From the IMG/VR virus record IMGVR_UViG_3300020718_000012, positions 3,710 to 67,709 of that record: a stretch of DNA of 64,000 nt; one strand, written 5' to 3'. The translations under genes and the position numbers were made by a program. Below the pieces are notes generated by a model. It was not told where the DNA came from and made no database searches. It was given only the letters and a program-made list of their open reading frames with translations. The stretch is from a virus. Its lineage: Duplodnaviria > Caudoviricetes. Below, piece by piece: positions 3 to 2,061 of the stretch. Each line of letters opens with the position of its first letter. Position 1 is the first letter of the stretch.

Positions 3-404
3 GGATTCTCTGTAAAGCATAGTGGTGCGATTGCTGACATTGTAATGCCTAAATTGGATGACATTGTTAGCAAGTTTATGGATAACGAATTTTTTACCCT
101 TAAACGCAAATTTGAGGTACTTGCTGAACGACCAATTTACAACTTGGAAGATTACGTTAAAGTGACTGCAAAGTCATTAGGATTGTTCAAATATGAGATG
201 TCTGATAAAAATCCCGAGCCTAGTGCAAATGCAAGATTCATCTTTGATGTAGTTGAAAGAGAAACTGCACAATTGAACACTAGACCAAACCAATGGATAG
301 TATACAATGCATTCAATGAATTGATTCATGGCAAATTGAAAAAAACATTTGACCAACAACGCACATTAGATGAGAGATTATTTGATACTATCTACGCAGG
401 TTAA
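3..404 (+). CDS. DUF932-like protein, C-terminal part (5' truncated by window edge)
   Basis: Frame is open from nt 3 (GFSVKHSGAIADIV-MPKLDD); xKHS/T motif followed by helical region with NQWIVYNAFNE resembles phage DUF932 proteins; stop TAA 402-404. Confidence 0.55.
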   Translation, partial: GFSVKHSGAIADIVMPKLDDIVSKFMDNEFFTLKRKFEVLAERPIYNLEDYVKVTAKSLGLFKYEMSDKNPEPSANARFIFDVVERETAQLNTRPNQWIVYNAFNELIHGKLKKTFDQQRTLDERLFDTIYAG

Positions 405-450
405 CTGACGAGCATTCAATATGCGAAACCATCTTCGGATGGTCTTAACC
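399..450 (+). ncRNA. Type I hammerhead ribozyme 1
   Basis: GGTTAA-CTGACGA-GCAT(TCAAT)ATGC-GAAA-CCATC(TTCG)GATGG-TC^TTAACC: complete core, three stems, GUC cleavage triplet (cut after 444). Confidence 0.93.
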
Positions 451-462
451 AATAACAATTTT

Positions 463-750
463 ATGACAACAAATTATTCAATTGAATTTATGATTCAAAA
501 TGGCGAAAGATTCGCTAGAAAATGTGACCATTGTAATAAGCCCACAAATGAGGTTTATGTCATCAATGATGGTGAAGAGTATTATTGCTCCGATGATTGC
601 TTACATGAGCATTACACACCAAAACAATGGAAGAAAATGTACAATAATGATGAAGGATATTGGACAAGTTTTTATGACAATTTAGATGGCGACATTGCTG
701 AGTGTGATGTGGAATTTATTTTATTCGATGGACAATTAATTCAATTATAA
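463..750 (+). CDS. Small Zn-binding protein (CxxC...YCSxxC, TRASH/MYM-like)
   Basis: CDHC...YYCSDDC; start moved from 421 to ATG 463 because 421-450 lies inside the ribozyme. Confidence 0.7.
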   Translation: MTTNYSIEFMIQNGERFARKCDHCNKPTNEVYVINDGEEYYCSDDCLHEHYTPKQWKKMYNNDEGYWTSFYDNLDGDIAECDVEFILFDGQLIQL

Positions 751-769
751 ACTTATTAAACTAAACAAA

Positions 770-982
770 ATGAAAAAATTTAAAGTATCAAGATGTGAAG
801 ATTCAGATTATATTCTGGATAGTAAAAGAAGATATGGTGTGGAATATATTTCTATTGATGAAGATGGCAATCCAATCGACTTTGGTATGGATTATGATTA
901 TTTCAATTCTGAGTTAGAAGCAGAAACATTTGTAAAAAATTATAATTTAAAAATTAAATTTTATGAGCAAAGATTTATTTGA
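770..982 (+). CDS. Hypothetical early protein
   Basis: 70-aa ORF with A-rich leader. Confidence 0.6.
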   Translation: MKKFKVSRCEDSDYILDSKRRYGVEYISIDEDGNPIDFGMDYDYFNSELEAETFVKNYNLKIKFYEQRFI

Positions 983-1172
983 ATGCACCAACAAATTGCC
1001 TAGAAAAATAAAAGCCATTTTAAGGCGATTTAATGACCTAGAAATCGAAAGAGGTATACAATATTCAGATTTGATACAAATGGGCAAAGAAATGGCTATT
1101 TATGGCTATAGCTTTGATTTTTACTTGGATTGCATACCATACAATTTGCAAAAGATTAAAAAGGTTAACTGA
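963..1172 (+). CDS. Hypothetical early protein
   Basis: 69-aa ORF; stop TGA lies in the CTGATGA core of ribozyme 2. Confidence 0.65.
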   Translation: MSKDLFECTNKLPRKIKAILRRFNDLEIERGIQYSDLIQMGKEMAIYGYSFDFYLDCIPYNLQKIKKVN

Positions 1173-1216
1173 TGAGGATTGAATATCCGAAATGCGTAGC
1201 AATACGCATATTAACC
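1163..1216 (+). ncRNA. Type I hammerhead ribozyme 2
   Basis: GGTTAA-CTGATGA-GGAT(TGAAT)ATCC-GAAA-TGCGTA(GCAA)TACGCA-TA^TTAACC; AUA triplet (cut after 1210). Confidence 0.92.
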
Positions 1217-1229
1217 AAAACAATTAAAA

Positions 1230-1589
1230 ATGGAAAAGAAATTCGTTATTGACTACGATAACAAAGTTTTGACTTTGCATTATCAAGGACAAGTTTTTAT
1301 GTTTGATTTAACTATGGGTGATGTAGGTGATTTTTGGTATGGTTTTGTCTTAAAAGATGGAACTATTCTGGATGTCAACTACCATCAAGAAGATGCAGAT
1401 GATGTACCATTCTGCGAAATTTGGGGAACTGATGAATCTAAGCCATTGAATACCCAACAAATTGATGGATTGGATATCTGCGAGATTCTAGGTAATCCTA
1501 TAAACTATTTTGGTGAAGAGCCAATCCAATTATCTTGGATGAACGCATTTGAATTAGACAAACAATTTACAAACTTTAAAATTAGATAA
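1230..1589 (+). CDS. Hypothetical acidic early protein
   Basis: 119-aa ORF starting 13 nt after ribozyme 2. Confidence 0.75.
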   Translation: MEKKFVIDYDNKVLTLHYQGQVFMFDLTMGDVGDFWYGFVLKDGTILDVNYHQEDADDVPFCEIWGTDESKPLNTQQIDGLDICEILGNPINYFGEEPIQLSWMNAFELDKQFTNFKIR

Positions 1590-1590
1590 A

Positions 1591-1815
1591 ATGGAAATAT
1601 TAAACGCAACACCAAAAGGTACATTCTATATCAATGAATTAGCTTGTGACCTAGCTGACTTATTTATTCAACAAACCTATCAATATACCACTGAACCAAT
1701 TTGGGAAGATGATGGTGATGGTGGTAGCAGATACACCGAATTTATGCAAGAGCAGTTCGACATCGTGCATAACAAAATAGAATCATATCTATTAAGAAAC
1801 CAATTAAAAAAATAA
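1591..1815 (+). CDS. Hypothetical early protein
   Basis: 74-aa ORF tightly packed in the operon. Confidence 0.7.
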   Translation: MEILNATPKGTFYINELACDLADLFIQQTYQYTTEPIWEDDGDGGSRYTEFMQEQFDIVHNKIESYLLRNQLKK

Positions 1816-1817
1816 CA

Positions 1818-2006
1818 ATGACAAATTTAGAAATCAAATTCAGATTAGAACAAATCTTAGCCAAAATCCAAGACAATTGCGATAGTGGATGGAATGATGA
1901 TTTGCAAAGCACATTTAATTGTGTAATCCTTGAAGATGCACAAAACAACTACTATAATGGGTGGCTAAGTGAATTAGAAGCTCTACACGATGATATAATC
2001 GCATAG
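1818..2006 (+). CDS. Hypothetical early protein
   Basis: 62-aa ORF; stop TAG overlaps the first G of ribozyme 3. Confidence 0.7.
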   Translation: MTNLEIKFRLEQILAKIQDNCDSGWNDDLQSTFNCVILEDAQNNYYNGWLSELEALHDDIIA

Positions 2007-2061
2007 GTTAACTGATGATAGGTAAATCCTTGAAACGAGCTAGAAATGGCTCGTATTAACC
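2006..2061 (+). ncRNA. Type I hammerhead ribozyme 3 (variant stem II)
   Basis: GGTTAA-CTGATGA-TAGG(TAAAT)CCTT-GAAA-CGAGCTA(GAAA)TGGCTCG-TA^TTAACC; GUA triplet (cut after 2055); U-U instead of G-C at the base of stem II. Confidence 0.85.

Follow-up and report, generated by a model that had tools for sequence, protein, structure and literature searches.

Hammerhead ribozymes among the small gene cassettes of an uncultured tailed phage: probable self-cutting punctuation of one operon RNA

The stretch of DNA described here, further referred to as the window, comprises 64,000 nucleotides (nt), that is bases 3710-67709 of the 67.7-kb IMG/VR virus record IMGVR_UViG_3300020718_000012, which is rated complete by CheckV. 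Close to its beginning three elements are located (399-450, 1163-1216 and 2006-2061; positions are those of the window unless the genome or a locus is named), which are quite probably genuine cis-acting type I hammerhead ribozymes that, together with a fourth type I copy and one type III hammerhead, punctuate and self-cut one operon RNA of roughly 4.3 kb. Judged from the sequence, the assignment of the three elements to the type I hammerheads holds, and we infer that the operon is read as a single transcript, that this transcript is cleaved and that the phage benefits from it. The elements had been pointed out in an earlier note on this DNA (the original prediction) and were confirmed base for base by direct reading and by pattern search:

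399-450, + strand: type I hammerhead; canonical core (N7 = C), stem II of 4 base pairs (bp) with UCAAU loop, stem III of 6 bp with UUCG loop
1163-1216, + strand: type I hammerhead; canonical core, stem II of 4 bp with UGAAU loop, stem III of 7 bp with GCAA loop
2006-2061, + strand: type I hammerhead variant; core intact, U.U at 10.1/11.1, stem II of 3 bp with UAAAU loop, stem III of 8 bp with GAAA loop

The invariant core is complete in all three elements, i.e., C3 U4 G5 A6 N7 G8 A9, G12 A13 A14, the pair A15.1-U16.1 and a nucleotide H17 that is not G; Perreault et al. (2011) defined the core in the same way. Common to them are also a 6-bp stem I, the sequence CUGAYGA, a UNAAU loop of 5 nt on stem II, GAAA and a stem III that is paired throughout; according to the scanner, stem I is open, and stems II and III are closed by loops around the core. 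Cleavage is predicted after C444 in the first element (GUC, 444/445), after A1210 in the second (AUA, 1210/1211) and after A2055 in the third (GUA, 2055/2056), and these sites, as well as the tetraloops and the UNAAU loop, had been read correctly before. Stem III is fully paired as described in the original prediction (with one G.U pair in the third element); as a correction to it, stem II of 2006-2061 contains only 3 Watson-Crick pairs next to the U.U mispair. When a gapped pattern consisting of the core, GAAA and the 3′ arm was run on the 64-kb window, exactly 3 matches were obtained, and there were 0 in 100 shuffles. The type I scanner, which required solely the core and three helices and covered the whole genome, returned the three window elements and one further copy at genome 3134-3186, all on the + strand, and no others in the genome. 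The minimum-free-energy fold of 1163-1216 equals the hammerhead fold (z -4.1), and that of 2006-2061 reproduces the hammerhead structure.

The family to which the elements belong was followed through IMG/VR by two scans of different stringency. In the first viral scan the stem I arm of this phage and the core were fixed as primary sequence and pairing was not required; at least 120 contigs were found, and among the matches listed there were 139 distinct elements, both hairpins forming in 126 of them (0.4 expected with shuffled inserts) and U16.1 being followed by C or A in 138. In the second scan, where only the core and the stem II architecture were fixed, 95 of the 99 matches listed proved to be type I hammerheads, whose 6-bp stem I covaries and is very diverse in sequence. 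Conservation of stem I across phages of many phyla, as it appeared in the first scan, was rejected as ascertainment bias of the pattern, because the arm of this phage occurs in only 2 of the 95 type I elements listed in the second one. The family spreads over at least 200 IMG/VR contigs in the two scans and is also present in prophage-like DNA of several phyla; the arm-plus-core pattern was found in 25 bacterial assemblies, among them isolates of Haemophilus, Pasteurella, Shewanella, Sedimentibacter and Paraflavitalea.

Covariation supports the same structure, with the reservation that in several alignments this structure had itself guided the choice of the sequences or their fitting. In a gapless alignment of 23 sequences (A1), whose rows were chosen by the pairing scanner, pairing amounts to 99.5% and changes on both sides occur at 10 of 16 pairs, a value that 0 of 500 shuffles reached. 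From A1 a family model (R1) was built, its E-values being rough due to a shortened calibration. R1 recognized two window elements lying outside its seed, 1163-1216 (57.7 bits, E 2.6e-13) and 2006-2061 (52.1 bits, E 8.6e-12); 399-450 scored 72.9 bits, but this sequence belonged to the seed. A second alignment (A2) was composed of loci fetched by protein homology and not by RNA pattern, with rows fitted to the model: 98.9% of it is paired, double changes are found at 11 of 16 pairs, and G.U pairs are present, so that RNA rather than DNA pairing is favoured. Loss of pairing in homologous loci had been named in advance as an observation that would count against the claim; in A2 the pairing is kept. 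Across hundreds of copies C3-A9, G12-A14, A15.1-U16.1 and H17 (never G) are fixed, while the stems vary freely.

The neighbourhood of the elements is conserved as well. A query with the protein of the DUF932-family gene that ends in the first element yielded 19 related viral loci with 65-93% identity, in which R1 detected 38 ribozymes, all on the gene strand. In nearly all 19 loci a ribozyme stands directly 5′ of the DUF932 gene, and in L250-L253 a ribozyme orthologous to 399-450 stands directly 3′ of it; the type I class is thereby supported by conservation at the same gene junctions in 19 loci in addition to covariation in hundreds of relatives. In distant relatives the sequences of stems I, II and III differ, with compensating changes in stem I. 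The two closest relatives carry upstream of the DUF932 gene a ribozyme (L246:3905-3963 and L247:2152-2210) in which the 15.1-16.1 pair is swapped to U-A. According to established mutational data such a swap is expected to abolish cleavage, and this ribozyme is likely a dead copy. The cultured Flavobacterium phage 6H, which encodes a DUF932 homologue of 56% identity, was also considered; its genes are tightly packed, with no ribozyme-sized gaps, and it was not included in the model scan.

Statistics of the architecture, drawn from about 280 distinct elements, describe a stereotyped unit. Stem I has exactly 6 bp in 305 of 317 elements, it is preceded by A in 94-97%, and the two bases that follow are A in 92-99% and 82-85%, respectively; stem II usually has 4 bp and a UNNAU loop. 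The stop codon of the upstream open reading frame (ORF) is found at -9 to +7 relative to the first base of the element, and an ATG-led ORF of at least 30 codons mostly starts 12-25 nt 3′ of the element, behind a leader that is A-rich and G-poor. The genes that follow family members are small (median 78 amino acids, aa) and extremely diverse. Pfam matches were obtained for just 13 of 150 diverse downstream genes, including TreK, a T7-like RNA polymerase and DUF6876, and therefore no common function emerged. In the relatives a conserved small hairpin (L248:3949-3975, L250:2189-2215, L252:4606-4630 and others) separates many ribozymes from the ATG that follows, close to the predicted new 5′ end; it has a 5-bp stem with GGAG in one arm. 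The window copies are without this hairpin, and the sequence 2062-2074 resembles its 3′ half.

Three ribozymes had been counted originally, which is right for the window, but the operon contains five, four of type I and one of type III, all on the + strand between genome 2144 and 5770. The survey of upstream sequence and related phages that had been proposed thus brought two more copies upstream of the window along with the 38 in the 19 loci:

genome 3134-3186 (L001:1495-1547), + strand: type I hammerhead, fourth copy; found by the type I scanner, R1 score 66.1 bits
genome 2144-2203 (L001:505-564), + strand: type III hammerhead; found by the type III scanner, 12 nt 5′ of the operon's first ATG

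The fourth copy shares its arms with the other type I copies. It carries an additional U between A9 and stem II, a variant found in 19 of 286 family members, and it would isolate the DUF932 gene as a 973-nt piece. In the type III element an additional U follows A9, and in its orthologues (L251:1935-1986 and L128) stems I and II have changed with compensation. As a control, the type III scanner gave 2 matches in 200 shuffled genomes.

Several observations weigh against this picture and have to be set beside it. The minimum-free-energy fold of 399-450 forms stems II and III but prefers a competing 5′ pairing over stem I, and an upstream hairpin competes with stem III of the type III element. Stem I consists of just six pairs, mostly A-U/G-C. 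No specific pairing was found for the tertiary contact between loop II and stem I, on which rapid cleavage at cellular Mg2+ depends, although throughout the family the UNNAU loop and the A residues on either side of stem I are conserved; a mutual information signal between loop II and stem I or its flanks was discarded as an artefact of pooling two differently selected sets. The third element carries a core-adjacent U.U mispair (10.1/11.1), a kind of mispair (1.1-2.1, 10.1-11.1, 15.1-16.1) that is absent from 399-450 and 1163-1216. It was stated that a core-adjacent mispair leads to rejection of a candidate unless activity is demonstrated (Perreault et al., 2011; PMC3088659), and under this rule 399-450 and 1163-1216 pass fully, while 2006-2061 is set aside for testing. 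The U.U mispair is probably tolerated, because it recurs in about 2% of the family (elements listed) and in two orthologues (L250:4705-4760 and L251:6931-6986), where U.U is kept and stem III is changed with compensation; the element may cut more slowly.

The search with Rfam hammerhead models, suggested in the original prediction as a check, is a further point of this kind, as neither RF00163 nor RF00008 gave a hammerhead match on the window or on L001 at the gathering score or at E <= 10. We read this miss as a limit of the RF00163 seed and not as evidence against the fold, because the core is intact and the pairs covary as described above. Among 13 related loci with dozens of type I copies (L061, L062, L067, L083, L151, L173, L201, L236, L250-L252, L254 and L051), Rfam at the gathering score reported as a hammerhead only one element, of type III (L051:2477-2529). 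It also reports a DUF805b RNA at L083:250-282. A very abundant phage type I family therefore escapes current Rfam models, and its architecture is simple and searchable. A literature search for the arm-plus-core sequence returned unrelated primers only.

The genes between the ribozymes form cassettes, whose division into three, three and one ORF per fragment had been given correctly, as the ORF list confirms:

3-404, + strand: 3′ part of the DUF932-family gene (full gene L001:1566-2474, 302 aa)
463-1172, + strand: first cassette, three small ORFs (463-750, 770-982, 963-1172)
1230-2006, + strand: second cassette, three small ORFs (1230-1589, 1591-1815, 1818-2006)
2075-2401, + strand: third cassette, one ORF of 108 aa from the ORF list (phrog_9945 at 8e-08)

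It had been proposed that each element sits between a stop codon and an ATG. The ATGs are indeed found 13-14 nt downstream of the three elements (463, 1230 and 2075), but the stops overlap the ribozymes instead of preceding them: the TAA of the DUF932 gene (402-404) is inside stem I of 399-450, the TGA that ends ORF 963-1172 (1170-1172) is a part of the core CUGA of 1163-1216, and the TAG of the second cassette (2004-2006) overlaps the first G of stem I of 2006-2061. Homologues at 61-86% aa identity exist in related loci for ORFs 1230-1589, 1591-1815 and 1818-2006. ORF 963-1172 also has homologues in related loci, and none were found in the 19 loci for ORFs 463-750, 770-982 and 2075-2401. The sole recognizable product of the operon is the DUF932 protein (Pfam PF06067 at 5.6e-16; phrog_21518 at 2e-106), the others being ORFans, and the label of early host-takeover genes that had been attached to them is unproven.

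In the proposed mechanism the whole operon would be transcribed from a Bacteroidota-type promoter, and each ribozyme would fold during transcription and cleave its own strand 3′ of H17. From the 5′ end, this would release a leader of about 260 nt, then 1030 nt carrying five small ORFs, then the DUF932 message of 973 nt; pieces of 766 nt (445-1210), 845 nt (1211-2055) and about 440 nt (2056 to the terminator) would follow in the window. An upstream piece would keep its stop codon and end in the compact ribozyme fold with a 2′,3′-cyclic phosphate, as follows from hammerhead chemistry, and the downstream piece would carry a 5′-OH and start with the six arm bases of stem I, followed by an A-rich leader that is unstructured, the AUG being 19-20 nt from the new end. 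In this way the new ends would be protected and the gene blocks uncoupled, each with its own stability and translation. Since the stop codon lies inside the ribozyme, a terminating ribosome would cover its 5′ half, and translation and cleavage could interact.

Ribozymes of the same phage tend to have stem I arms in common. The four type I copies here have identical arms, and if the preceding A and C3 are added to the 5′ arm, an 8-mer results that is present 5 times on the + strand of the 67.7-kb genome and 0 times on the - strand; four of its copies are the ribozymes, and the remaining one is an orphan:

2451-2458, + strand: orphan 5′ arm, A + GGTTAA + C, not followed by a core, directly before the terminator

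The orphan arm is conserved in relatives. In the second-scan set, ribozymes of the same locus have an identical stem I in 21-26% of pairs as compared with 1.4-1.7% between loci, and stems II and III are likewise more alike within loci than between them, thus common descent explains a part of the arm sharing. Among neighbours, full complementarity of one ribozyme's 3′ arm to the 5′ arm of the next is seen in 43% of cases versus 4.5% in random pairs (n = 44), with stems II and III enriched only about 2-fold. A unit of 446 nt, which includes the third ribozyme, ORF 2075-2401 and the 3′ untranslated region, is bounded by a direct repeat of 9 nt (2004-2012 and 2450-2458) that consists of the stop codon and the arm. 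This unit is absent from L253, where the homologue of ORF 1818-2006 continues straight into the terminator module, and it therefore represents an indel. The third ribozyme moreover forms an island of 62 nt, whose identity is 95% with L250 and 88% with L251, between genes that are not homologous, and gene content between ribozymes is mosaic. These facts fit cassette exchange at the DNA level or pairing of ends and circularization at the RNA level, neither of which is proven.

It is rather unlikely that the arms are joints of a natural gene-cassette system working at both the RNA and the DNA level, in which excised messages would pair or ligate their own ends and the repeats would serve insertion and deletion of units. 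Unlikely, too, is that the elements are mainly joints of a DNA-level system, where arm and core would provide short homologies for gain, loss or swap of units and RNA cleavage would perhaps be secondary; such a role is compatible with self-cutting of the operon RNA. The indel in relation to L253 with its repeat of stop codon and arm, the conserved island between non-homologous genes, the mosaic gene content and the cross-compatibility of neighbour arms, more strongly enriched than that of stems II and III, all agree with such joints. Yet a single clear indel was found, nine bases are a very short target for homologous recombination, small genes often turn over in accessory regions of phages even in the absence of special joints, and the strict conservation of catalytic nucleotides and the compensatory changes are left unexplained. 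We consider it very unlikely that an excised piece pairs its 5′ arm with the arm of its own 3′ ribozyme to give a closed-loop mRNA, or a circle formed via reverse ligation or RtcB as in eukaryotic retrozymes. A 6-bp arm is weak across 440-1000 nt, and arms within other phages are not always alike. The identity of arms in all type I copies and the within-phage excess of arm compatibility point in the direction of end pairing, as does the orphan arm before the terminator, by which the last piece too would have a partner for its 5′ end; the greater likeness of stems II and III within loci, however, leaves part of this signal to common descent. As a precedent, tandem type I hammerheads are reported to yield circular RNAs in animals (PMC7229834), but when circular or spliced products of clustered bacterial hammerheads were sought, none were found (Perreault et al., 2011; PMC3088659).

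Finally, the elements could be structured but catalytically inert, and act as 3′-end stabilizers or as sites for proteins or RNases, or be decayed relics. This is extremely improbable: decay occurs in the family, as seen from the swapped 15.1-16.1 pair in L246 and L247, and the third element has its U.U mispair, but non-catalytic selection would not fix C3-A9, G12-A14, A15.1-U16.1 and H17 in hundreds of copies with free stems. Processing of a polycistronic RNA by its own hammerheads, as put forward in the original prediction, appears to be the best reading on sequence grounds, although the idea itself had already been published (Perreault et al., 2011).

Portal, large terminase and primase/helicase genes in the record indicate a tailed phage, the genome of which has ~30% G+C. 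The host is likely from Bacteroidota, because the nearest cultured relatives of the DUF932 protein are encoded by Flavobacterium psychrophilum phages (56% identity) and a promoter-like -33 TTTG / -7 TAnnTTTG pair lies upstream of the operon (genome 1855/1876); the phage is uncultured, and its host probably belongs to Flavobacteriia. The first 6 kb used as a nucleotide query gave no match in the phage collection. The probable end of the operon is as follows:

2464-2493, + strand: putative intrinsic terminator of the operon; 6-bp GC-rich stem, 10-nt loop and a run of seven T, read from the sequence

This block is 87-89% conserved in related loci and was missed by the terminator scanner, which was limited to loops of up to 8 nt; with the same loop limit no intrinsic terminator was found on the + strand of 399-2061, which together with the promoter-like pair and the putative terminator is indirect evidence for one transcript. 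Two matches to the -7 box TAnnTTTG are inside ORFs there (1109 and 1298), so that internal promoters may exist. The first small ORF of the operon is followed by a GC-rich hairpin (L001:812-831, genome 2451-2470) that resembles a terminator but has a weak T tail; it could attenuate transcription or stabilize the message of that ORF. The leader from the promoter-like site to the type III ribozyme (L001:250-505, genome about 1890-2143) is ~260 nt long and non-coding, and contains blocks 100% identical in L251 and L128 with hairpin-sized insertions between them. It is without an Rfam match, its fold z-score is only -0.57, and it could be a small RNA released by the ribozyme; matches to it in L006, L017 and L075 were judged to be due to chance. 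Further upstream of the window a ~240-nt G/T-rich stretch with many GGGG and TTGG runs (G000:C1:1380-1620), atypical of the genome, separates a leftward gene block from the operon promoter.

The operon offers a compact test case, with five ribozymes, DUF932 as its own message and a natural U.U variant, the value of which is increased by close relatives that differ by whole ribozyme-plus-gene units. RiboJ-type synthetic insulators place a hammerhead just 5′ of a coding region, so that the preceding RNA is removed and a short uniform leader is left. There the ribozyme is an engineered single part, whereas here it occurs naturally, in several copies between cistrons, and is overlapped by the upstream stop. 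With Hammerhead_1 (RF00163) and Hammerhead_3 (RF00008) of Rfam, clan CL00010, the elements share the catalytic core and the three-way junction. The retrozymes described by de la Pena and colleagues (PMC7229834, PMC4918200) belong to eukaryotes; they are non-coding retroelements, 170-1000 nt in length, whose tandem type I hammerheads yield circular RNAs. The phage operon resembles them in its successive type I copies with identical arms, through which an excised piece could rebuild a complete ribozyme from its own ends, and differs in that its predicted pieces carry phage protein genes.

[quoted passage not shown] In that study type I was found to be as frequent in bacteria as types II and III, native ~2-kb transcripts with three ribozymes were cut in vitro and one of them in E. 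coli, and processing of long phage RNA into operon- or gene-length mRNAs was proposed. In common with those clusters are the mixed types (I and III here), the single orientation, the flanking phage genes, which vary, and the proposed role. What differs here is the occurrence of five ribozymes in 3.6 kb of an uncultured phage, the identical type I arms, and the stereotyped unit, in which stem I has 6 bp and A on either side, the loop is UNNAU, the stop is built in and the AUG lies 12-25 nt downstream. A later review stated that more work is needed to define the role of bacterial and phage hammerheads (2019; PMC6765202). Phage ribozyme arrays and the idea of polycistronic processing have been known since 2011, and the operon described here is a new example of them, not a new kind.

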